From Anolis carolinensis (Eukaryota), in contig NC_085843.1 of assembly GCF_035594765.1 (NCBI RefSeq), positions 55,784,201 to 55,848,200 of the forward strand: DNA of 64,000 nucleotides. Direction: 5' to 3'. Positions 16,556 through 39,248 of this stretch are shown here, one piece after another. The notes under the pieces were generated by a model. It saw nothing but the letters and a program-made list of their open reading frames with translations. It searched no databases and was not told the origin of the DNA. Positions within the stretch are counted from its first letter, which is position 1, and the number at the start of each line of letters is the position of its first letter. The position numbers were made by a program, and so were the translations under genes.

Positions 16556-19500
16556 CTATGTGTCCATTTTGTCCAAAGTACCCATATACTTTTTCAGTAA
16601 GCTGCGATGGAATACTGGGTGTATTTTCCCTAAACTTTTTGGCAATGCCAACTGGAAAGTTACTTCGTTGATAACACCCTGTATTCTGAATGGTCCAATA
16701 TATTTGGGGCCCAGTTTTCTCGAAGGCAGCCCCAATTTGATGTTTTGGGTACTTAACTACACTAAATCTCCTTCCTCCAATTTATCGCCTTCCATCCTTT
16801 TTCTGTCTGCGAATGTTTTATACTTTTTGTGTGCTTCCTTTAAGGATGCAGTCACTTGACTCCAGCATTCTAGCATTTGAGTTTTCCATTTCCCTGCCCC
16901 TGTTTCTTCATTCTCTGTCCATCTTGGCAACTGGGGCAGAGGCTGTATTTCATACCCGTAAACTACTTCAAAGGGAGTTTTATTTGTTGCGGAATGTATA
17001 GTCGAATTAAAAGCTAGTTCTGCGAAAGCCAGCCACTTAGACCAGTCATTTTGTCTCATGTTAGAGTACATTCGAAGGAACTGCCCAAGCGTCTGTTGAG
17101 TACGTTCTACTGCCCCGTTTGTCATGGGGTGAAAAGCAGAACTTAGACTCCTTTCTGCTCCTAGCATTTCCAAGAATTTTTCCCAGAATTTTGCTGTGAA
17201 CTAAACCCCTCTGTCACTGACCACTCTACTGGGACATCCATGAAGTTTGTAAATATGGTTTATGTACAATTCAGCTAGTTTCTCTGCCGATGGTAGTTTC
17301 GTCAGTGCTATAAAGTGGGCCTGTTTGGAAAACAGGTCTAATACTGTCCAAATATAACGATGTCCTTTGCTAACCGGCAGTTCCCCCACAAAGTCCATAG
17401 CTACACATTCCCAAGGCCTGGTAGGTTCTGCTACTGTTTGTAATAATCCCATTGGCTTCCCTCCTCTCGATTTATTTCTGGCACAATCATCACATTGAAC
17501 AACATGATTCTTTATGTCCTTCCTCATCCCTGGCCACCAACAATGTTTTGCTATTGCCTTTGTTGTTTTTGTAATTCCTGTATGACCAGCGCTCTGGTTA
17601 TTGTGAAAACGATGCAAAATCTTAATCCTTAATATTGCTGGGATATACAGTTTCTTGTTCACAAACCAGAATCCCCCCTTCTGCTCCCCCTTTTCTGCGT
17701 TGGATGCGATCCACTGATCTCCTTCGTATGACTGTTTCAGTTCTTTTCCCCAACTATTCTCCTCGTCGAATTTAATAATAGCAGTGTTCTCTCTTTGGGT
17801 CTGCGCTCTTGTACTGACAGCTAAGCCCCATTGTTTATCAGAGAATACTGTTCCCTCTTTTGCTGTGGTTATGCCTTCGTGTTGAGGCATGCGTGAAAGA
17901 GCATCTGCCAAGACATTCTGTTTCCCTTGGAAAAACTTTAATTGGAAATCGAACCTGCTGAAGTATTGTGCCCATCTAATTTGTTTGGGGGACAATTTTC
18001 GAGGAGATTTTAAATACTGGAGGTTCTTATGGTCAGACCAAATTTCAAATGGGATTCCGCTCCCTTCGAGGAAGTGTCGCCAGCATTCTAAGGCTTTTAA
18101 TATGGCTAATGCTTCTTTTTCCCATATGGGCCAACATTTTTCAGTTTCACTGAACTTCCGGGACAAATATCCACAAGGTTTTAAGTTCCCATTTTGATCT
18201 TTTTGCAATAGTACTGCCCCGTATGCACAGTCTGAAGCATCGCAATGGATTATGAAAGGGCTCCGGATATCGGGGTGTTTTAGGATGGGTTCTTCTGTGA
18301 AGCATCCTTTTAGGGTTTCAAATGCCTTTTGGCATTCTGGCGTCCAACTCAGTTTGGCGCCAGGAGCTTTCACTTTTGCTGTCTCCCCTTTCCCTTTTAT
18401 TTTTAAAAGTTCAGTAAGGGGTGCGGTTATTTGCGCAAAGCCTTTTATGAACGATCTATAAAAATTTGCAAACCCCAGAAATGATTGCAATTGCCTCCTT
18501 GTTTGAGGTACTCCCCATTCTTTTACGTCTGATACTTTAGACGGGTCCATAGCTAACCCTTCTGGAGATATCCGATACCCCAGAAAGTCAATTTGAGTTT
18601 TATTAAATTCACATTTGGACAGTTTTGCATACAGCTTTGCTTCCCTTAGTCTCTGCAAAACTTCCCGGACCAATTCCACGTGCTTTTCTTTATCTTCGCT
18701 CACGATCAAGATGTCATCAAGGAATATGAATACTCCTCGGTACAACAATGGGTGCAGTATTTCATTTATAAGCTGCATAAAGCAACTGCCGCCATTTTTT
18801 AACCCAAATGGCAAAATTTTATATTCAAAATGGCCGAATGCGCAGGAAAATGCAGTTTTCCAAGTATCCTCGGGTTTGATTCTTAATTTATGATATGCTT
18901 CAATTAAATCCAGTTTAGTAAATATGCTCCCTTTCTTCAATACGGTAATTAAATCCTTTACTAAGGGCATAGGGTATTTATTGTCCTTAGTAATTGCATT
19001 TAAATTTCGATAGTCAATGCACAATCTTAGAGAGTTGTCTTTCTTTCTCCTAAATAACACTGGGGCTCCGAGAGGAGAATTGGATGGCTTAATGAAGCCT
19101 CGCGCCAGGTTCTTATCAATATATTTCCTCAATTCCTCCTTCTCCTGAACAGACATGGGATACACTTTTGGTTTTGGTAAGTTTGCTCCTGGGGTTATTT
19201 CAATTTCTACTTCTATATTCCTCTTGGGAGGTAATTTACTTGCCTCTTTCTGATTGAAAACATCCACAAAGTCTCTGTATTCAGGTGGCAATAGCTGTGG
19301 GTCTATTTCCCCTGCTTCATTTCCCTCGTCCTCCTCTCCTGCTATTTTGCTTATCTCCCATTGCGTTTGTTGTTCTTTAAATGCTAGGCTCTTTCCTCTC
19401 CAATCTACTTCAGGATTTGCCTGTTCGAGCCATGAGATCCTTAGTATTACATGGTATGTGGCAATAGGGGCTATCACAAAGGATATTCTTCCTTCCCATT

Positions 19501-21376
19501 TGCCTATTTTACATGGGACCCCCCGTATTTCCTTCGTAGATACTTCCCCAGCAGCAACTGATCCATCTAGCTGCGAAAATGCAATTGGGGAGTCAAGCAA
19601 CGTCTGCTGGCATTTCAGCGCTCCTGCTAATTCCGGAGTTATAATGTTCCTAGAACAACCGCAATCCACGAATGCCCTGCAGGTGGCCCGATTCTCTAGC
19701 CCCGATAGGCAGATTGGCACTACTAGCATGCGTTTGTCTCGACTCACCAGCCTTTCCGGAGATTCTGGGGCTCGCACCTCCTCCTCCGCTCGTCTCCCGG
19801 CTGCTGGCTTGGGCTTTGAGGGTTTTGGCGGCTCCCCCTTCCGGGCCCAACATTCTGCTGCTCGATGGCCCGTCTTCCCACATACAAAGCATCCCGGCTT
19901 GGGTTTGTTGTCATCTCCTTTGAAGGGGATCCCCGGCCTCCCTCCGGGCCTTTCCTGCTTCCTCGTTTCTCCTCGACCCCTCGCCACCGGTCTTTGCTGG
20001 CCGCCGCCGCCCCTGAAACGCTTTACTTGGGCCAGGGTGGATTCGACGCGCCCCGCTAGTTGTATCCAGCCCTGGAGTGTTTCTGGGTCGTCTCTGTGCG
20101 CTGCCCAACTGAAAACCTCGGGGCGTAGTCCCTCTTTGAATATCTCCACTTTGGTCACTTCAGACCACTCTGGCACCCTTTCCGCGAGATGGAGGAATTC
20201 CTCTGCGTACTCGGGCACCGTTTTGTCCCTCTGCTTTATTCCTTTAAGCTGGTCTCGAGCCCTCAATTGCTCTAGCCGGTCTCTGAACCGGTTTTCCAGT
20301 GCGGCGAGGAAGCGGGGTACTGACCTCAGGCACGGGTCGCGTCTGGCATGTAGTTGCACATACCAGCTGGCTGCTCCTCTCTTTAGTGTGTTGCCGATGG
20401 CCCGAACCATGCTTCCTTCGGAGGGGAATGTGTGTGCATTGTCTTCCATATATCCTCTGATGCTAATGAGGAAAAAGTTCAGTTCAGATGATTCCCCTCC
20501 GTATTCCAGTTTGAGCTCTTCCCTCCTTTGCATCCATTCTGCGGCCCGTTGATGCTGTCTGGGAGGCATGGGGAAGGGTTGCATCGGGTTTCCTTGGACG
20601 GCCCCTTTGAACACGCCGCGCCCCACTCCGGCGGTCGTTCCGCGCGGCTCCCGAAATTCTGCCGCTGCTGTCGGCCCTTCCACCCATCCGAATGCGGGCC
20701 TCGCTGTAGCCCCCGCACCTCGCCTTCCCTCGTCGTACGGCACATCCTCCTCCTCTTCCTGGATCTCCGGCTCCTCTCCGCCTTCGTCTGCCAATCCACT
20801 GGACCCGATCCCTGGCCCCAGTGGTCTTTCCACCCCGACGCCCATTCGGGGGGTTGGAAGTCCTGTTGGAGTTGGCGGCCTCAGAGTTCCCAGAGCTTGC
20901 TGGCGCTCCACTTCGCGTGCCATTCTGTCTCGGAACTCCAGTTCCTGCCAGTATTCCTCATCCCCCTCGCCCCTCGCCGCCACGGGGCTCTGCGTTGAGG
21001 CGCGCTGGCCCCTCTGGCTCCAAGCTTCTTCTTTACTTGGCTCTCTCTCGGCGCCATATCGGGTGGGCTCCCTCTGGAGATTCTCTTCCAATAGTGGCAC
21101 CAACCTCCCCACGGTTTCCGACAGCCTGGATAAATTAGTTTCCAGGATTGATAACCGCAGGGCCACGGTCTCCGGCATGCTTCCTCCAGATCCCCAACTG
21201 GTTTCTGCAGCCGCAGAGACGCCTCTTCCTCCTCTGGGAATCCTCTGGGTCACGCCGTTCGGCCTGGGGTACCCCGTAGAGGAAGCTATGGCTTGCAGCG
21301 TCTCTTCCCCCAACGGCCGGGCCCCTGGCAAAGGCCTCTCTGCTCCATTTAGGCTTTGATCGCCTTCTCCACTCAT
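16556..21376 (-). pseudogene. Single-frame gag-pol polyprotein with two in-frame TAG stops in integrase
   Basis: ATG at 21376; CCHC knuckle CFVCGKTGHRAAEC; protease FVDCGC; RT IFLDDILI; RNase H CDASD / WSDHKNL; integrase HH-CC and D,D,E. Stops at 17201-17203 (DRGV*FTAKFW) and 16757-16759 (GDLV*LSTQNIK). The frame continues through YIGPF and HPVFH to TAG at 16556-16558. Confidence 0.93.
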
Positions 21377-21415
21377 TATCACTTCACTGCAAATCCGCAG
21401 GAGGGTGAGATCGGG

Positions 21416-21426
21416 ATTCTCGACTT
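21416..21426 (-). other. Self-priming primer-binding site (non-tRNA)
   Basis: Minus-strand AAGTCGAGAAT, 3 nt inside the 5' LTR boundary, is exactly complementary to ATTCTCGACTT in the LTR (21533-21523). No TGG tRNA-type PBS is present. Confidence 0.8.
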
Positions 21427-21791: not shown

Positions 21792-22604
21792 CTTCATGTT
21801 GCCTTTGTGCAATCAGAATTTATTAATGACATTTCCATTACCAAATTTTTCAATTAAAAAACCTCCTCATTTTCTTTAAAAGAGAGGGGAGGGTTTGCAC
21901 TTTCTGCAAGCTTCCGGAAGCATGAATCTCCTTTAAAATGTTAGACCCGTTGAGTTTGATTTAAGCAACACAGTAAAATAAAAGCTCTCACACATACACC
22001 CCTCCACAGTACTTTTGATGTCAGTCTCAGAGCACCAAATTCAGCAACAAGGAAGATCTGGAGTTTATATAAATGGCGGAGGGGGGGGGGCTGTGTGTGT
22101 TACATTTTGCCCACACCTGCTGTGTGTGTATCATGTAGTGGTATACTGCTGGGATGTAAAGCAGCATCCCCTGGAATGGATCCCTGTTGCTGCAGATAGG
22201 TTTGCTTGATGTGCCATGTGCAGCTTTCCCATCTCCAGTTGCTTACTTGACAGATTTTTTGTATCTCAGACAATCTGCCTCCCAGTCCTTAGAGATGGTA
22301 GCGTGGATAAGTGTACAAGTGGATATTGAGCTGCTTTGTCCTGGATGCTCTTGAGTCAAACTGTGTTCACGATGAAATGTAGCCCAAGTGATCTGATGTT
22401 TTTGCCAGGACCTGATTGCATGACCAAAAGTTCTGTTTTCTGAAGGGATATTGGCATGGGTGCAATGGCAAGCAACAGTAATCCCATGCTGGCGGGACTT
22501 TCTAATTTGTTAGCATTAAATGAGGCCTTGGCCTTTTTCCAGGGCTGGACTGATCATACATTCTGATGTTGATTTTTCTTAGTAAAACTTTGGTCTTCTT
22601 TCAG

Positions 22605-22683
22605 GTGATCGTCATTTATTCACAAAGGGCTTCTGAACCCATCTTCAGGATGATCAGCACAATGTTGTGACGCTGGAGTTCTG
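22605..22683 (+). other. BCL9: Probable non-coding 5' UTR exon of BCL9
   Basis: Strong acceptor TCTTCTTTCAG| and donor CTG|GTAAGT around a 79-nt unique segment upstream of the first coding exon; BCL9 is known to have non-coding leader exons. Confidence 0.6.
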
Positions 22684-22989
22684 GTAAGTTCCTGTGTAAT
22701 GAAAGGAAGAGAATGACAGGATTTTAAAATGCAGGCTCTAGCATGCTGTATTGAATAATAATTAGTTGGCAAAACCACTTAAAAATCTGTTCACTTCATG
22801 TTCTGATGTGGCAGGATGGTGAGGATCATGTATCTGAGAAGGAGTACTGATATTCTGAGGCAATGGTATTACTACCTCAGGCTGAAGGTATATTGCGCAT
22901 TTGTAACAAAGTTCAATATAATCTGATACGATGCCACAAGAATGTGAATGCATATTATTGTTGTTTTAAACTGTTTATTTTATAATGTA

Positions 22990-24439
22990 CTAGCTGTGCC
23001 CAGCCACGCGTTGCTTTGGCTTATCGGAATGCTTTGTTGGTCAGGTGGAATAGCAGTGAATAGTCTTGTAGCCTCAAAGCCTGGCCATTTTCTTCTTATG
23101 GGAATCCTTGTTTCGTGAGCTGGAATACAAAGGAATAGGAACTTGTGTTCTAGGGGAATGGTTTTTTGGGCTGCTAGAATTGCAATGAGTAGCCTCACTA
23201 CTTCAAAGCCTGGCTGCTTGCTACTTAGGGGAATCTTTGGTTGGTCAGCTTCAGTAGTACAGAGTAGTATTGCTGCTTCAAAGCATGGCCACCTTCTACC
23301 AAGGTTAATCCTCTGTTGCACTGAATAGCCTTGCAGCTTCAATGCCTGGCTGTGTTATACCTAGGGGAGTCCTTGTTTGGTGAGCTGGAGTAGCACCTTC
23401 AATCAAAGAGCCGTTTTGAAGCCTGGCTACTTCCTTTGTAGGGGAATTCTTGTTTGGCCAGCTTGAATTGCACTGAATAGTCTTGCAGGTTAAAAGCCTG
23501 GCTGCTTTCTACATAGGGCAGCCATCCTAAGCCAGGTTGAATGGGACGGAGTAGACTCGTGGCTTCAAAGCCTGGGGGTTTTCTATCTAGGGGAAATCTT
23601 GGTTGGCTAGGTTGAATAGCACTGAATAGCCTTGCTGCTTGCAAGCCTGGCCGCTTTCTACCTTGTGGAATTGGTCACCTTGATTAGCATTTAATGGCAT
23701 TGCAGGTTTAAAGCCTGGCTGCTTCCTCCCTGGGGAAATCCTTTCTTGGGAGGTGTTAGCTGGCCCTGATTGTTTCCTTTCTGGAATTTCCAAGTTCCCT
23801 GCTTTCAGAGTGTTGCTCTTTATTTACTGTCCTGGCTTTAGAGATTATATTGTTCTGTATTATTATACCACAGTAATTATTTCATATTATATTTATAATC
23901 TTATATTATCTACTTAGAAGTGGATTATATGAGGCCCCTTCTACACAGCTGTATCAAATCCACACTGAAGTGGATTATATGGCAGTATGGACTCAAGATA
24001 ATCCAGTTCAAAGCAGATAATATAAGATTATAAATGGGTAATATAGCTGTTTTGAGTCTACACTGCCTTATAATCCAGTTCAAATCAGATAATCTGTATT
24101 TTATAGGAAGTGTGGATCAGGCTTAAGTGCACTCTGCCTGTGCCCTGGTGCCATTTTGGCTGAGGGAGTTGCTAGGATACGAAGGGGGCGGGGCCTAAAG
24201 GCAGCGGGAGGGGGGGGGGGCTAAAGGCAGCAGAGCCTACCTTTAACTGGCAGTTAGGGGGAGAAAGGCTCTTCCTCATCCTCTGTAATTTGGACTATTT
24301 TTCTAGGTTTTTTTTTTTAATTGAAAGACATATTTTGGATGACTATATCTTTTGTGGCCAAATTTAGTGTGATTTGGTTCAGTGGTTTTATTGTTTACTC
24401 CATAGTAAAACGAACATTACATTTTTTAATATATATAGA
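22990..24439 (-). mobile_element. Non-autonomous Helitron
   Basis: Minus strand starts A|TCTATATAT and ends with a GCCA..TGGC hairpin then CTAG|T; AT target, no TSD. Confidence 0.8.
23040..23760. repeat. Diverged minisatellite (about 60-78-bp unit) inside the Helitron
   Basis: AAAGCCTGGC-like anchors recur near 23077, 23205, 23281, 23341, 23419, 23493, 23567, 23643 and 23710. Confidence 0.8.
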
Positions 24440-25002
24440 TTAGGCTTGATCGATCCATGAAAAATTTGATTCTAAACTCGTTTCAAAACTAGAGGGGGCA
24501 GTTTTTCGTTTTTGTTGCTATTTACGAATTTGGCCCCCAAAAATTTTCGAAATTAACGGAAATTCGTTATTTTCTAAATTAATTCGTTAATGGCGGACGC
24601 GCATGCGCAATTCCCAAAAACAGCACAGAGGGAGAGGACTTTACAGGACTCTCCCACCCTCATTTTTTGAGTGATCTTCTTCCAACTTGGTACAGTGGTA
24701 GAACACATTTAAAACTGATAGCTCACCAAAATTTGGAACGTTTCCCTTATCCTCTGATTTTTGGCGAATTTTCATAGCTTTTATAATAAACCATTTTTTA
24801 ATAATTGCAGAAATCTGTTCCTGGTTTGAAAGTCTTATTTCCTGTTAAATTGGGTTGTCTTTACTGTGAAAGTCATTGTTCTACTTCAGAAACTTTGTTT
24901 TTGTGGCTGAAACTTTGTTAAATTGGTGTGTGTGTGATATATACTGTGTATATATATATAGTCCCTGCATATGTGTGTGTGTGTTTGTGTGTGTGTGTAT
25001 AT

Positions 25003-25160
25003 AGGTAAAGGTAAAGGTATCCCTTGACGTTAAGTTCAGTCATGTCTGACTCTGGGGGTTGGTGCTCATCTCCATTTCTAAGCCCAAGAGCCAGTGTTGT
25101 CCATAGACACCTCCAAGGTCATGTGGCCGGCATGACTACATGGAGTGCCATTACCTTCCC
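25003..25160 (-). mobile_element. Sauria SINE 3' fragment inside the hAT
   Basis: Reverse complement of the 3' half and (ACCTTT)n tail of the copy at 31909-32212. Confidence 0.85.
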
Positions 25161-25169
25161 AGAAACACC

Positions 25170-25412
25170 CAGAAAATGGGAATTCCAGACAGGAAACAAT
25201 CAGGGCCAGCTAATACCTCCCAACAAAGGATTCCCCCAGGTAGGAAGCAGCCAGGCTTTGAAGCTGCAAGGCTATTCAATGCTAATCAAGGTGACCAATT
25301 GCAACATTCACACTTGCCTCCCACAGACAAGAGTTCTTTCTCCCACCCTGGACCTTCCACAGATATATAAACCCCACTTGCCTAGCTTCGCACAGACGTC
25401 AAAACCTCTGAG
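25170..25412 (+). mobile_element. Penelope-like element 3' fragment inside the hAT
   Basis: Matches in reverse complement the Helitron segment at about 23660-23800, and ends at AACCTCTGAG, where the hammerhead-bearing copy at 61881 begins. Confidence 0.65.
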
Positions 25413-25414
25413 TA

Positions 25415-26200
25415 TCAGGCCTGGCAGGCAGGGAAGGGCGAGCGAGCGAAGGGAGGACAGCCGCCGGAGGAGGACGAAGCAGAGGGGAAGGGGTCTCGAT
25501 CCGCCGCCTCCGCCCGCCTGGATGCGCCTTGCGAGGAGGAGGCGGAGGAAGCGGAGGAGGGGGCGGCAGAGGGAGAAGCAGAGGCAGGCAGTGAGGGAGG
25601 CATGAGCAGCGCCGCCCGCGCCCCTCGCCCGCCTTCGCCTTCCGCCTCCTAAGCGACCCTCCCTCCCTCCCTCCCAGCCCCATCCTCCCCGCAAGGCTTC
25701 CGAGGAGGAGGAGGAGAGGACGCCGCCCGAAGGAAAGGAAAGGTCGGTGGGCTCTTCGGGGGAGACCTTGGGGAAGGTCGCGGGAAGGGCGGGAGGGGAA
25801 GGGGAAAAGCGCCCCATTTTCAAGAGCCACTTCGGGAGGGAAAGAGGGCAACCAAGGGGGGACCTCCCTCTCCCCCTCCTTCCCTCCTGGAAGAAGAAAG
25901 GAAAGACACGTGGACGTGCCTCCTTTCCGACGTGCGGGCCTCGCCTTCCTGGGCGCTGACACGCGAGAGCCTCCCTCCCGAAGACAGAAACCTGGCCCAG
26001 TCCTTCCTCGGTAGGCTATTGGGAGATCACCCTTGGGAGGTAATAATAATAAATTATTATCAGCTGCTGAGGCGAGGCGGCGGCGGCCATTTCCCCCCTC
26101 CGTCTTCCTCCTCCTCCTCGGCCTCCTTCCCCCTCGCCCCCTCCCATTGGCTGAGCCCGTGACGCCCCTTTTGCTGAGGGGCAAAAGGGAAGGGCCTGAA
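25415..26200. promoter_or_regulatory. CpG-island-like segment with promoter motifs, carried inside the hAT
   Basis: Very GC- and CpG-rich against an AT-rich background; CCAAT (-, about 26146-26150), GTGACG (26159-26164), YY1-like GGCGGCCATTT (about 26082-26092), GC boxes, three RCGTG sites near 25907-25934. Confidence 0.6.
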
Positions 26201-26647
26201 TGGTGGGAGTTTGGGTGCTTTGCAAAAGCTTTTTTTTCCTAACGAAAAAAACGACGACATAACGAAAAACGGCCTCTCGCGATTCGAAACCGCGATATCC
26301 AGACGTGTGACAACCAATGCTTCAAAATTGCTTCAAAACAAACGAAAATAACGAATTAATAACGGTTAACGGGGAAAACGAATTATTTGGGCAAGCCTAA
26401 TATAGATTATACTTTTTATTGGTGTAATTCGCGTTTTATTTTTTTCTAGGAGCTTTTATTAGGAATAAAAGGAAAAATAATCCTTGCTCAACTATTAAAC
26501 TCAGTTGGTAACCTTGTGCTTAGTTTCTTTTTGCACAGAAACATAAGTAGGGGTTTTAGTGCAAAGAGCATGCTTTTGGAGGGGACACAAAATTTGCATA
26601 ACAATTGATAGATTTCTATAAATTGTTGGTGTGTGTGTATGAAGGAG

Positions 26648-26780
26648 AGCAAGCATTGTATAATAGTTTGAGTGCTGGGCTATCATTCTGGAGACTAGGG
26701 TTTGATTCCCCCCTCTGCCATGGAAACCCACTAAATGATCTTGGAAGATTCACATATTCTTAGTCCCACAAAACACCATG
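26648..26780 (+). mobile_element. tRNA-derived SINE (Squam3-like) 5' fragment
   Basis: A-box-like and B-box-like (GGGTTTGATTCCC) head followed by GCCATGGAAACCCAC. Confidence 0.5.
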
Positions 26781-26999
26781 ATCCCAAATACAGTAAGTTA
26801 CAATTACTTGTAAGATTGCTTTATTGTTTGATGCCCCACCAGTCGCAAGGATTCTTGTTGTGGGCACTGCAAAGCAAGAAGGCAAAATGGAATCAATATT
26901 ACAGCAGAATCTCATGTACACAACTCATCATTATGCTGGAGTTTTGTGTTTTACCAAACAAAATTTGTTTGTGGGTTGACACGGAAAGTTCTGATTGAA

Positions 27000-27145
27000 G
27001 GTAGGCAGTGGGCAGCAAAGAGCTGTGGACTTTCCGCCACTGCAGATCATTAAAAAGTGGTTGGATGGCTATCTCTCTGAAGTACTTTGGCAGGAGCTAT
27101 GGACTAGAAAATCTTTGTAGTCCTTCCAGATCTATGATTTTATTA
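27000..27145 (+). mobile_element. CR1 LINE 3' tail fragment
   Basis: GGTTGGATGGCTATCT..GGACTAGA..CCTTCCAGATCTATGATT is a CR1-type terminus. Confidence 0.55.
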
Positions 27146-29333
27146 TCCAGTCCATTGCTTTCACCAAATCTTAGCATGCTGGGAACCTGATTTTTTGGTT
27201 GCTTGACTAGTGATGGGTACCAAGTGTACATGTAAACTGGACACATGGTGAAGCTGGTAAAACTAAGCTGGTAAAACACAGCCTCAGAGGGAACCAGTGA
27301 CAAACTTCTTCCAAACAGTTATGTCTTGCTGTAGTTTCTCACTTAACTGCAAGCTAAGACTGTACATAATGTAAAATATACACATGCAGTATGCATACTG
27401 TTCCAATATTCACATTCTGTGTTTCTAAGATTTTTAAAAAACCCATTGCATTTGTATGACAGTGCATTCATGTAGAATATTCTGCAACTGTGAAATAGGC
27501 AATTCCATATGAAGCCGTGACTAGTTTTTGTTTAGATAAAGATGAAAGAAACATGGAGATTGATATTGGGCTGTGGTATGTACAGCTCGTTGATTCAAGT
27601 GGTAGTCAGATTTGATACCTGATGCCTGTTGTTTCGGATCTAAATCTGCAATGTGTGGTTTCAGTCATAGAAGGAAACTTGTCCTGTGGTATAGTTTTTT
27701 CAAAGAACACAGCTCACAATATGTATATCATAGATGTTGCAGATTCTTCACAGTGTTATTTCCAACATCTTATTGCTTGCAATTGGCTTTGTTCCTCCAT
27801 TCTTAGTGAAAATATGCTACCATTTTATGTTTCAAGAGCTTTTTTGGTCAAGAGGTGAAAATGCAACCTGGTGTGAACCGATTTGGACTTCACATGCTCA
27901 AAACTTATGACAGAGCAGGTCTGCCCACATCCACTTACCACTTTCCAGTTTAATTCATGGGCATCATTATTTTCTCCCAGGCAAAATGAATGAGTGAGGC
28001 TTAGGGGTAATTTCTGTGCTTGTGCAAACAAGATCTCACAACAGCTCAGTATGCAGCAACTCAGTATATGCATTTCATATAAAACTCCTGTACACAGATG
28101 AGACTGTGTTTGTCGTAGCCTCCTTAAACATTAGAATTACATTAGCTGAAATTTGGCTGCCACATTCCTCTATTTTCAGTAGGCAAATGGTGTTATTCTC
28201 TATGTATGGTATGGAGATCCTTTCTCAGATTTCCAGGGAGTAATAGAGATCTTCCTTCAGAGAAGAAAGTATTGGAAGAAAGGATGATAGGCTCAAGAAG
28301 AACACCAAAATAATTAAGATGTATTTTCTTAATACTGTCTTGTGATATATTATCAAACACGTTGATGTTGTGTCATGGAGAGTGATACAAGTCAGTATTC
28401 ATGGATTACTGTCATATCTAGCATAACTTGTCACTTGCAATATATTCTTATAGTTCCTGCTTATTTCTTTAGCCTTCCAAAGGCATTGGTGAGTTTCCAA
28501 CAAATCAGCATCCAATGAACACCGTTTTCTTGAAATACTAGCTTCTTTAGAGCATGTAGGAACCTGCCTAACTTAACTATCTTCTATATTTATTAAGAAA
28601 GAGTACTGGGAATGCCTGATTTGAATAATATTTATCTAGTTACATTAACAATAGATCTCCTTGTTGTTTGATATTTGATGCAAAATTGTTTCAAACCTTT
28701 TTACAGTGAAGAGCAAATACTTTGTTTCCTTTAGTAATAATAATGATAACAGTAAGAACATGTGTAAAATATGCCCAGAGTCTGAATGGTCAGAGTATGC
28801 TAGAGATTGATTTAGCTGTTCTAAAAGTGGATAGTACCACCCAAAATATGATAAGTTAATTTTTGGCTATATTTATTGTTTGGTGAATATAGTTTATGAT
28901 TATGAGTAAAAAAATTGTTATGAAAATCCTTTTCACCTTTCTTTTCATTCTATTGCCTTTATATATTTTTAAGAAGTAATGGTTGTCTATGTAAAGGTGA
29001 TAAAGCTCAATAATTTGATTTTGAAAAAATACTGCGAGTCATGGTACAGATTATGTGTTTGTACATGATCTTAGATTGGACTACAGAGGAACGTAGCCCC
29101 TCTGTGTGTTAGATCTTGCACACCTGGTTATTACTTACATATCTAATACCTGAACAGTCACTGGCTGGAATGTACATTCAACTTCCGCCCAACAGAACCC
29201 CCTTTTTTTTTTTTAGTAAAGTAGAAAAATGCTTCCACATACAGTATGCCTTAGCAGGTTCTTTGCATTTTAAAAATATTGACTGTTTTTTGTTTGTTCT
29301 TTGCTGGTTGGTCTGATGTAGTGTGCCCTGGAG

Positions 29334-29510
29334 ATGCGAGACTTCCTCACCACAGCAGGAGTCACTCATCTGGAGAATGCTGGAGCTGCAAGAGGGAAAG
29401 GCCCAGTCCAACAACAGAGAGAAGCCAAGAGGAAAAAAGCAAGCAGACCAACGGCACTGAGGAAAGCACGGGGCAGAAAGTGCTTCAGAACTAATAACAA
29501 GGGAACTTGA
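29334..29510 (+). CDS. Upstream ORF in the BCL9 leader, 58 aa, basic
   Basis: ATG in GAGATGC context; reads MRDFLTTAGVTHLENAGAARGKGPVQQQREAKRKKASRPTALRKARGRKCFRTNNKGT*; ends 46 nt before the BCL9 ATG. Inferred exon acceptor at 29321/29322. Confidence 0.55.
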   Translation: MRDFLTTAGVTHLENAGAARGKGPVQQQREAKRKKASRPTALRKARGRKCFRTNNKGT

Positions 29511-29556
29511 CAAGAGCTTGTCAGTGTGTGTGTTTGTGTGCGTAGGATTTCTGTCA

Positions 29557-29609
29557 ATGCATTCCAGTAACCCCAAAGTGAGAAATTCCCCATCAGGAAA
29601 TGCCCAAAG
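29557..29609 (+). CDS. BCL9: BCL9 coding exon 1 (MHSSNPKVRNSPSGNAQS)
   Basis: Recognisable BCL9 N-terminus; donor AG|GTAAGT. Confidence 0.95.
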
Positions 29610-31075
29610 GTAAGTAGTATTCATTACAAGGTTATAACAGAAGGGAATACAAAACAATGTTTGCCATATGTAATTACATCATTGAAAATCTCTATCCTGT
29701 GTTCTTCATCTTTTTAAAATTTTCTATGAGAAATGGACAATCCAACACAACAGTCACCCTCTCAGTGTGCTGTTTTATCAGGCATGGTCTGTTTCTTCAA
29801 AATTCTTTCTGAGAACCATGGTTTTCCCAGCACAGTTTTTCCACCTCTGTTGGATTCACATTGCAGTGAAATGATGAATAATCTTTGACTACCCCCATCC
29901 CATCCCCATTGAATCTCTCGGCACCACCTTCTGATTAGATAGAACAGCTTTAGAGAGGGGTGACAGGCTCAGCCTGTCTACTTGACAGCACACTTCACCC
30001 ATGCTTTTATTTTATTAGTAAATTAAATACTGAAGCAAAGAGGGATATGTTTCCTTGTCAGATCTTTGGCTTGGTGTTCCGGGGAAAACACAACTTTCTT
30101 AGGCCAGAGAAGGTAGATTGTCCCTTTAAAAAACCACTTTGAAAATAAGTTGCAAAGGTATCAGCCTTGTAGCAGATATGTTAATTGAGAGATCACTTTG
30201 CACGAAGTAAACAAATGCTAAGCCAGAGAAGGGGAGAATAGACAGAGTAGGAACCTCTCTACTTTATTGCTCTAATTTCATCATATTTAGAATGCCCACT
30301 AATCTTATGAGTACATTCAGTTGATATACAGGTCTAGCAGTAGTCTGTCCACATAAGTCTATAATACCTATTTTGAACTTGCATGTTTTTGTTATCAAGG
30401 GAATCTAATCTTCTGGCTGTTGAATATTATTGTTAATCACTTCCATATTTTCACCACCTCTACCATGTTAAGAGTTTACAAAATAGAAAATGTAATGCAC
30501 ACACTTGTATAACTTGCATTTTCAACTTACTTTCAAAGACAGGTAAAATTTGCATCTTTCGGCTGAAAAGAAATGATAGTGATGTAACTCCTGTTGATTT
30601 GGGACAAGTAATTTATGATAGAAATCCACAATTGGGTGTTCGTTCAGCTGTAGTCTTATAAACCGGTTAGATCTTTCTTGGACTAGCTTTTATCCTGCAG
30701 TCGAACTGTGTTGCTTGAATCCAGGAGGTTGGCATTATAAAGTTTATGGTGCTCTGCTTATTTACTTTGTGCTGGTCTTAGCGAGAGGCACGTCTTTGTA
30801 CATAGAAACCATTGTTTTTATTGACAGAAGTCACAGAGGTACATCTCTATATGAATTACTGCTTCCTAGGATCTGGATTGTTGCTGCTTTGCAGTATTCC
30901 TTCAAGTAGTTGTATTTCCAGCTGGATAGTAACACAAAATAGCAGCTGGATGGCATGGTTAAAATAGCTTATTGGTGCCGCATTCTATAACAAGACTGAG
31001 TTGGTGGCAAGTTCTGTGTACATTGGTATTGTATTTTTAATATAAATTTCTCTTTTCCTAATCTTTGCTTTCCAG

Positions 31076-36936: not shown

Positions 36937-39178
36937 AACACACAGATTCCACCACTCCGAAATGATACAAAGCCCCAAGTTCCCTCACAGTTGCCTGTTT
37001 CTCAGGAGCAAACTCCTCCCCAGAATGCCAAAATGCAGCAAACTCCACCCATTCCAGTGCCAGCACCAGCACCAAAATCTACTGGCCCTCCTTGCCCTAT
37101 TGATCAGGACAATCCTGGATTGGAGAGTAAAGGGATGTCTGTAGGAAGTCCTGCAAACTCTACCCCACTGCAAACAGAAGGATTTGGGCAAACCTCAACT
37201 CCTAATAATCGACCAGTTAGTCCAGTGTCCCAAGGGAGCAATAGCTCCACTGCAGACCCTAAAGGTCCCAGCCAGCAGGTATCTGGAGGGGACCCACCAA
37301 ACATGGGTGAAAATCCAGATGGATTGTCCCAGGAACAGCTGGAGCACAGAGAACGTTCGTTGCAGACTCTACGTGATATTCAGCGTATGCTTTTCCCAGA
37401 TGAGAAGGAATTTGCTGGAGGCCAAGCTGGAGGTCCTCCACCAAATTCTGGAGTGTTAGATGGTCCCCAAAAGAAACCAGAAGGCCCAATACAGGCCATG
37501 ATGGCTCAATCCCAAAGTTTAGGCAAAGGGCCTGGACCCCGGACAGAAGGAGGGCCCCCTTTTGGTCCCCAAGGCCACAGAGACATGCCATTCTCACCAG
37601 ATGAAGTTGGACCACCATCCATAAACTCTCAGTCTGGCCCTATAGGACCAGATCATCTGGATCACATGACTCCTGAACAGGTGGCTTGGCTTAAACTGCA
37701 ACAAGAGTTCTATGAGGAGAAGAGGAGAAAACAAGAACAGGTTGTGCAGCAGTGTTCTTTACAGGATATGATGGTTCACCAGCATGGGCCTCGAGGGTTG
37801 GTCAGAGGCCCCCCACCTCCATATCAGATGACCCCAGGTGAAGGCTGGGGACCCGGGGGCCCAGAACCCTTTCCTGAAAGCATGGCTATGCCCCACTCAC
37901 TGCCCCCAAGGGGCATGGCCCCCCATCCCAATGTACCTGGCAGTCAGATGCGGTTGCCTGGATTTCCTGGAATGATAAATCCTGACATAGAGGGCCCCAA
38001 TGTCCCTGTCCCAACTCCCCCATCTAGACCTGGGCTTTCTGGTGTGCCTTGGCCAGAGGATGTGCCAAAACTTCCAGATGGCCGAAACTTCCCTCCCGGG
38101 CAGGGTGTGTTCAGTGGCCCTGGTCGAGGGGAAAGGTTTCCAAATCCTCAGAGCTTGTCTGAGGAAATGTTTCAACAACAGCTAGCCGAAAAACAACTAG
38201 GACTTCCCCCTGGTATGAGCATAGAAGGAATCAGGCCTGGCATGGAGATAAGCCGAATGATTCCCCCTCAAAGACATATGGAGCCTGGCAATAACCCTAT
38301 CTTTCCACGCATGCCAGTTGATGGATCCATGAGTCCCTCCAGAGGAGACTTCCCAAAAGGAATGCAACCTCAGATGACAGCAGGTAGAGAGATGGAATTT
38401 GGGATGGGCCCCAGTAACATGAAAGGAGATGTCAATCTGAATGTTAACATGAGTTCCAATCCACCAATGATACCTCAAAAAATGAGGGAAGCTGGAGTAG
38501 GCCCAGAGGAAATGATGAAGATGCGCCCAGGAGTCCCAGAAATGCTCCCCTCTCAGCAGAAAATGGTACCCTTGCCATTTGGTGAGCACCCCCAGCAGGA
38601 CTACGCAATGGGCCCAAGACCTTTCCATCCAATGTCTCAGGGCCCAGGTGTTGGTCTCCGGAATCACAGAGAACAAGTAGGGCCTGACCAAAGGACTAAC
38701 AACCGGCTTAGCCACATGCCACCACTACCTCTGAACCCCTCCAGTAACCCAAACAGCCTCAACACAGCTCCTCCAGTTCAACGCAATCTAGGACGCAAAC
38801 CTTTGGATGTCTCTGTTGGTGCCAGCCAGGTTCATTCTCCAGGCATAAATCCACTGAAATCTCCCACCATGCGCCAGGTCCAGTCTCCTATGTTGGGTTC
38901 CCCCTCTGGGAACCTCAAGTCCCCCCAGACTCCATCGCAACTGGCAGGGATATTGGCAGGTCCGACTGCTGTAGCCGCTGCTGCTTCAATCAAATCCCCC
39001 CCTGTGATGGGTTCTGCTGCCGCATCTCCTGTCCATCTCAAATCACCGTCCCTCCCTGCACCTTCTCCTGGATGGACTTCATCTCCAAAACCCCCGTTAC
39101 AGAGTCCTGGAATCCCACCCAACCACAAAACGTCTCTTGCCATGTCATCACCAGCCATGATGGGAAATGTTGAATCAG
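36937..39178 (+). CDS. BCL9: BCL9 coding exon 5 (2242 nt; HD2 beta-catenin-binding, HD3)
   Basis: NPDGLSQEQLEHRERSLQTLRDIQRMLF and TPEQVAWLKLQQEFYEEKRRK; TTTAG| acceptor, G|GTCAGT donor. Confidence 0.97.
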
Positions 39179-39248
39179 GTCAGTGCCACTCCTCCAAATC
39201 CTGTTTTTGGTCAGTAATGGTTTCAGTTAGAGGCTAATTACTCAAGAA

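Follow-up and report, generated by a model that had tools for sequence, protein, structure and literature searches.

The leader of BCL9 in the lizard Anolis carolinensis contains a 58-codon upstream open reading frame (uORF) whose peptide is the orthologue of the human entry ENSG00000288626 (AC242628.1, LOC128071544; NP_001401821.1, UniProt A0A6Q8PHS2). We consider the uORF to be real because of its conservation and not because of its length; it likely lowers the amount of the Wnt-pathway protein BCL9 that is made, and for the more specific proposal, in which a uORF with a conserved peptide acts in cis as a brake on BCL9 translation, we see about an even chance. New in this work are a nested uORF in the +1 frame whose geometry matches the human one, a 6-codon uORF in the preceding exon and a codon count favouring the 58-codon frame. 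As a discovery the long uORF is small, since the human ORF is already catalogued in GENCODE and RefSeq and an anole copy in RefSeq. It has modest weight because the leader of a beta-catenin co-activator encodes here a peptide that amniotes have retained, and our literature searches, which mostly missed subscription papers, found no published function for it. With the lizard sequence a distant relative can be compared with human, and the comparison points to selection on the 58-codon frame. Should the brake exist, variants of this exon that are at present taken to be non-coding for BCL9 could alter the dose of Wnt signalling.

Host gene and exon structure

The host gene was identified as BCL9 by the Pfam family PF11502 in the large exon at 36937. 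Joining the first four coding exons by their coordinates gave a 219-residue frame with 198 of 219 residues identical to rattlesnake BCL9, and the same 219-residue start aligned with the sheep gene model over 185 residues, 153 of them identical. All positions refer to the window, which is the whole stretch of 64,000 nucleotides that was analysed. The features of the gene are:

22605..22683, + strand: preceding leader exon of 79 nt with CAG acceptor and GTAAGT donor; 3' end supported by a contig, 5' end read from the letters alone
29320..29321, + strand: splice acceptor AG, 12 nt 5' of the uORF ATG; from the sequence, a contig end and the homologous junction in sheep and vole models
29322..29609, + strand: BCL9 exon with the uORF and the first 53 coding bases; from the X10 contig, GT donor at 29610
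29334..29510, + strand: 58-codon uORF, translation ending in TGA; supported by relatives, by human, mouse and rat records and by a GENCODE entry
29557..29609, + strand: BCL9 coding start, T at -3 and C at +4; from the sequence and the joined exons
36937..39237, + strand: open frame over the large BCL9 exon with PF11502, which identifies the host gene

In the sequencing run X10 a 318-nt contig of depth 44 fits 29321-29609 without differences and leaves 29 letters over, and the neighbouring contigs (depth 9-11) begin at 22654 and 29580, each 30 nt 5' of a GT donor (22684 and 29610). As 30 bases of the upstream exon and 288 bases of this exon add up to 318 nt, the junction from 22683 to 29322 is supported, namely by contig-length arithmetic in one run of four, the RNA status of which is presumed. 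In the other three runs (X12, X13 and X14) no contig covers the exon, possibly an effect of filtering that says nothing either way. Sheep and vole gene models cross the homologous junction. According to this contig the ATG, the open frame and the stop of the uORF all lie within the spliced exon, and the acceptor, for which the sequence-only reading had allowed a position downstream of 29334, is found at 29320-29321, 12 nt upstream of the ATG.

A TAG at 29543-29545, after a TG-rich run and 11 nt 5' of the BCL9 ATG, could serve as an alternative acceptor, the use of which would skip both the long and the nested uORF. The rattlesnake gene model P0008 uses the matching acceptor and thereby fuses the N-terminus of the uORF to BCL9. 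No branch at 29545 was seen in the X10 contigs, which drop rare forms.

The same earlier reading had described an uninterrupted 58-codon ORF, out of frame with BCL9 and ending 46 nt before its ATG, with G at -3 of its own ATG and T at -3 of that of BCL9, and in all of this it agrees with the sequence. Translation of 29334..29510 gives the expected 58 residues followed by TGA, the uORF ATG stands in the context GGAG-ATG-C (G at -3, C at +4), the BCL9 ATG at 29557 in the context GTCA-ATG-C (T at -3, C at +4), and 46 nt separate the uORF stop from the BCL9 ATG in a different frame. A complete ATG-started ORF of at least 58 codons appeared in 178 of 10,000 first-order simulations of the 235-nt leader part and in 152 of 10,000 shuffles of it, and the window as a whole holds 111 ORFs of at least 58 codons (54 on the + and 57 on the - strand). 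By itself the length is only mildly unusual. That the ORF is due to chance, or that splicing removes its ATG from the mature mRNA, is nevertheless extremely improbable and already largely refuted: against the 1.5-1.8% of randomised leaders with an ORF this long, and against the TAG at 29543-29545 as a later acceptor used by one rattlesnake gene model, stand the relatives across amniotes and the X10 contig, which is unbranched from 29321 to 29609.

Relatives and catalogue entries

The human peptide has 68 amino acids and is uncharacterised; in the core, 30 of 43 residues are identical between lizard and human (P0057), and the cluster of the human record matches profile A1 with an E value of 2.2e-28. 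The Anolis sagrei record XP_060626541.1, named 'uncharacterized LOC128071544 homolog' in RefSeq, is identical to the lizard peptide at 57 of 58 residues. A single-sequence search returned a Pogona match (86%) and one snake-type record, HMMER over 1.84 billion representatives gave 5 matches, and cluster look-ups led to the human NP_001401821.1 / A0A6Q8PHS2 as well as to mouse and rat records. With a 12-sequence profile 41 of 772 candidates passed, 39 of them named and all amniotes: placentals, one marsupial, birds, a turtle, an alligator and a lizard. Amphibian or fish relatives were absent among these 39 named matches, an absence that weighs little in a word-index search restricted to 31-125 residues. 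The ESM Atlas gave no usable match to the peptide, and in a metagenome scan for DNA of relatives 0 of 254 pattern matches were confirmed. Most of the protein records were modelled by projection of the human entry and hence show an intact frame and not expression; as such records exist only where the frame is intact, species that lost it are invisible.

The similar mammalian BCL9-leader peptide named in the sequence-only reading corresponds to human P0057, the amniote-wide conservation that it proposed is borne out by the relatives in placentals, marsupial, birds, turtle, alligator and lizard, and the suspected cataloguing in mammals exists in the form of RefSeq NP_001401821.1 and GENCODE ENSG00000288626. 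The human peptide is listed in the supplement of PMC11305224 as ENSG00000288626 at chr1:147611590-147611793 among 173 high-confidence small proteins, in a row that gives no protein-level evidence. Two human BCL9 uORFs are found in the supplement of the Ribo-seq catalogue PMC10032668, of which c1norep199 is the +1 frame with 45 codons, a PhyloCSF of -459 and no MS study listed; it overlaps the coordinates of ENSG00000288626. A BCL9 5'UTR microprotein with negative PhyloCSF is also described from human Ribo-seq in the accessible part of 10.1101/523860, its frame being deduced here from the BLASTp hits given there.

Conservation of the peptide

From 99 records we removed 6 fused, read-through or frameshifted ones, leaving 93, and 13 extra ground-squirrel copies, leaving 80. 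The long forms P0014, P0015 and P0083 were read as TGA-to-W read-throughs of the gene caller and the fusions P0008 and P0020 as gene-model artefacts; with the frameshifted P0007 they were left out of the counts. In two ground squirrels many gene ids on many contigs carry the 68-residue peptide (P0043 cluster), suggesting that the BCL9 5' region is amplified or that haplotypes were not collapsed.

Lengths cluster at 58-60 residues in squamates, at 63 in most birds, turtles and alligator and at 68 in 45 of the 80 records. Averaged over positions, the majority residue is found in 99% of 78 records at residues 1-4, 97% at 14-17, 91% at 29-35 and 75% at 36-45, which includes the following blocks:

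29334..29345, + strand: N-terminal M-R-D-F block; mean majority 99%, 78 records
29373..29384, + strand: E-N-A-G block (residues 14-17), over the nested ATG; mean majority 97%
29418..29438, + strand: basic motif R-x-x-K-R-K-K (residues 29-35), resembling a monopartite NLS in its letters; 80 of 80 records

R29 and R33 are invariant, R2 is present in 91 of 91 records, and position 3 is only D or E (E in 2 of 91). The conserved basic patch sits in the middle of the peptide, at residues 29-35, and not in the C-terminal half that had been described as Lys/Arg-rich; the tail has 5 K/R per 13 residues in the lizard and 3 per 23 in human. The bipartite NLS that had been suggested did not hold up either. 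Such a signal consists of two basic residues, a spacer of 10-12 and three basic residues out of five, a pattern found in the lizard peptide and in no more than 37 of 93 records, but absent from the human peptide. Among 28 placental records there are 0.89 changes per column in residues 1-36 versus 2.4-2.8 beyond. The changes in residues 1-36 have a mean BLOSUM62 score of -0.44, compared to -0.45 for a neutral single-base spectrum, and are thus no more conservative than neutral. As read from the alignment, residues 1 to about 43 appear constrained and the tail does not.

The tail-variant species are natural variants that bear on the proposed brake. In parrots and New World sparrows (P0006, P0022, P0026, P0071, P0073) the tail is frameshifted into the +1 frame, giving 71-72 residues, in bat records it is extended to 74 residues, in gopher, Myotis and hedgehog records (3 of 80) the uORF runs over the BCL9 ATG, and the bilby record stops at 36 residues. 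An RGT-like motif ends 64 of the 80 records, the other 16 being without it. The spacer to BCL9 measures 46 nt in the lizard, 50 nt in two bird-like records and 41 nt in one mammal-like record; the out-of-frame position recurs, but typical bird and mammal records are in the other out-of-frame phase than the lizard.

These data also bear on the possibility that the mRNA is bicistronic and that selection acts on a basic, disordered microprotein working in trans in the nucleus or nucleolus, any damping of BCL9 being a side effect. We rank this as the main rival reading and regard it as rather doubtful. It would account for the invariant R29 and R33 and the KRKK-type motif in 80 of 80 records, for a core about as similar to sheep (28 of 43 residues identical) as the disordered beginning of the large BCL9 exon is (60 of 97) and for the place of the human ORF in the curated set of PMC11305224, as well as for the third-position bias of the 58-codon frame and the silent changes at D3 and F4 with both residues kept between lizard and human (by-hand comparison, see below). 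It fits poorly with the non-conservative substitution spectrum, with the truncated and frameshifted forms and with the missing protein-level evidence in the supplement row of PMC11305224. Moreover, Pfam assigned no family to any of the three peptides scanned, and the AlphaFold model, with a pLDDT of 57.9, a pTM of 0.20 and one weak helix, has low confidence and did not qualify for a fold search. Most of the peptide is predicted to be disordered. A translated microprotein and a translational brake were the two roles offered by the sequence-only reading, and the trans-acting microprotein and the cis brake are not mutually exclusive.

Nested frame and codon comparison with human

The long uORF contains a second, shorter uORF in another frame:

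29377..29460, + strand: 27-codon uORF nested in the +1 frame, its ATG preceded by A at -3, read from the sequence; upstream the frame stays open as far as a GTG at 29323 (45 codons in all)

Relative to the first base of the 68-codon ORF, the human c1norep199 begins 11 nt upstream and stops 126 nt downstream, and the offsets of the lizard +1 frame are identical. A protein search with the +1 frame gave no candidate, which is not evidence as frames so short are rarely annotated. The residues of the long frame are compatible with the nested ATG in 80 of 80 records and with the nested stop in 78 of 78, a result that residue conservation alone would also give. Between the nested stop and its own ATG the BCL9 frame is open for 32 codons (29461-29556), so that a near-cognate start could extend BCL9 N-terminally.

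Codons 2-41 were compared by hand between the lizard and the two printed human frames, a count for one species pair that assumes no compensating indels. It gave 7 differences at first, 9 at second and 18 at third positions, and this third-position bias of the long frame (18/40 versus 16/80) has a Fisher p of 0.0055 and a binomial p of 0.014, calculated from the by-hand counts, as is the lizard-human dN/dS of about 0.17-0.25. By the same comparison 11 of 27 unchanged residues carry a silent change. The count favours selection on the residues of the 58-codon frame, as far as one species pair can indicate. In codons 14-19 around the nested ATG we deduced no lizard-human difference, silent sites included, which points to a possible added nucleotide constraint around the nested ATG.

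The latter result also suits the explanation that only the start and stop positions and RNA-level signals, for example splice enhancers, are selected and that the peptide is a by-product of nucleotide constraint in two overlapping frames. This would agree with the conserved E-N-A and L-R (42-43) lying over the nested ATG and the nested stop, with the compatible residues in 80 of 80 and 78 of 78 records, with the neutral-like placental spectrum and with a frame conservation of 45.8% versus a peptide conservation of 2.5% among human uORFs, as given in the accessible part of PMC13275300. We consider it unlikely, as the differences cluster at the third positions of the 58-codon frame, the identity is 30 of 43 in that frame versus 20 of 45 (by eye) in the +1 frame, the exon folds no better than its shuffles (z 0.15) and Rfam gave 0 matches over 22400-29800.

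Proposed model for a brake on BCL9 translation

Scanning ribosomes favour initiation at an ATG with a purine at -3, and reinitiation falls with the length of a uORF and rises with the length of the spacer behind it. On the spliced leader the ribosomes would reach two ATGs with a purine at -3 (29334 and 29377) before that of BCL9 with its pyrimidine, so that a large share of them might be captured, and after translating 58 codons few ribosomes would start again at the BCL9 ATG 46 nt downstream. The basic R-x-x-KRKK stretch may in addition slow ribosomes and hinder scanning. BCL9 would then be made by leaky scanning past the uORF ATGs, or by ribosomes that have translated a further uORF in the preceding exon:

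22650..22670, + strand: 6-codon uORF with A at -3 and a second in-frame ATG at 22662; read from the sequence, in the lizard only

From the stop of this 6-codon uORF it is 25 nt to 29334, 68 nt to 29377 and 248 nt to the BCL9 ATG in the spliced leader, and ribosomes not yet recharged after 25 nt could skip the long uORF. The map of the leader covers two exons, and exons further 5' may add ATGs.

We count the orthology, the recurring out-of-frame position with its short spacer, the apparent constraint on the peptide and the nested-ORF offsets shared with human as support for a brake in cis. The RGT-like end, kept in 64 of 80 records despite lengths of 58, 63 or 68 residues, was likewise counted for an architecture acting in cis. 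In a CRISPR screen of 978 human uORFs (10.1101/2025.07.07.663426) it was concluded that most essential uORFs act in cis, the accessible part of that report making no mention of BCL9. Against a cis brake with a selected peptide speak the neutral-like placental spectrum and the negative PhyloCSF of the human BCL9 5'UTR smORF in the accessible part of 10.1101/523860, the frame of which is a deduction. The loose tail, with 16 of 80 records lacking the RGT-like end and with frameshifts, extensions and the truncated bilby form, makes a stall at the stop codon a poor fit. No reporter test of a BCL9-leader uORF was found in print.

A more far-reaching version is quite improbable in our view. It takes the three uORFs in two frames as an amniote-wide translational switch that depends on recognition of the nascent long-uORF peptide while it is still on the ribosome, and the M-R-[DE]-F start together with R-x-x-KRKK would let a nascent-chain factor set the translation or decay of the BCL9 mRNA and hence the Wnt output. 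The M-R-[DE]-F start presumably resembles the MREI/MREC motif read by TTC5 on nascent tubulin. The motif of TTC5 tubulin autoregulation is MREI or MREC (MPREI in gamma-tubulin) and changes at E3 are reported to abolish autoregulation. The BCL9-leader motif M-R-D-F differs at positions 3 and 4, and the peptide was not assigned to the TTC5 substrates; a link to TTC5, the weakest part of the nascent-chain reading, is very improbable.

Similarity to known systems

The closest counterpart is human ENSG00000288626 / LOC128071544, which shares with the lizard uORF its place in the BCL9 leader, the N-terminal core, an RGT-type end and the offsets of the nested +1 frame; in contrast, the lizard peptide is 10 residues shorter, has a more basic tail and lacks the Cys-rich stretch. 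The human c1norep199 occupies the +1 frame over the corresponding bases with 45 codons and the same stop offset as in the lizard. Its peptide is identical at 20 of 45 positions by eye, and the human ORF is ATG-started whereas the lizard +1 frame opens at GTG with its first ATG internal (29377).

Arrest-peptide uORFs such as the Neurospora AAP and the cytomegalovirus uORF, as presented in the accessible part of PMC10501990, are likewise peptide-conserved uORFs ahead of a regulated main ORF. The BCL9 uORF differs in that it is most conserved N-terminally and its tail tolerates frameshifts, and its likeness to them is one of sequence. Like the bicistronic uORF microproteins ASDURF, HRURF and the ATXN1 uORF, the BCL9-leader peptide is annotated as a separate small coding gene in the leader of another gene; unlike the ASDURF type it is without a fold, partner or function found here or reported.

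In leaders of the ATF4/GCN4 type a very short 5' uORF precedes longer, inhibitory ones, of which that of ATF4 overlaps the main ORF. The lizard BCL9 leader also has a very short 5' uORF, with 6 codons and seen in the lizard only, but its long uORF ends 46 nt before the main ATG, and an overlap occurs in no more than 3 of 80 records. With a gap of 25 nt, skipping of the long uORF would more likely be constitutive than controlled by stress.

Repeat elements in the window

On the - strand a 1,407-codon open gag-pol frame (17201-21424) belongs to an LTR retrotransposon of the Ty3/Gypsy type with gag, RT, RNase H and integrase domains; the element lies upstream of the 79-nt leader exon and is probably located in a BCL9 leader intron. 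At 23026-23738 there is a degenerate array of units of about 75 nt with an inverted copy 1.4 kb away (25172-25303) and a very high repeat depth in all four runs. A further repeat element between the leader exons (24450-26400) has a G+C-rich interior (60% at 25001-26000) and looks transposon-like by eye.
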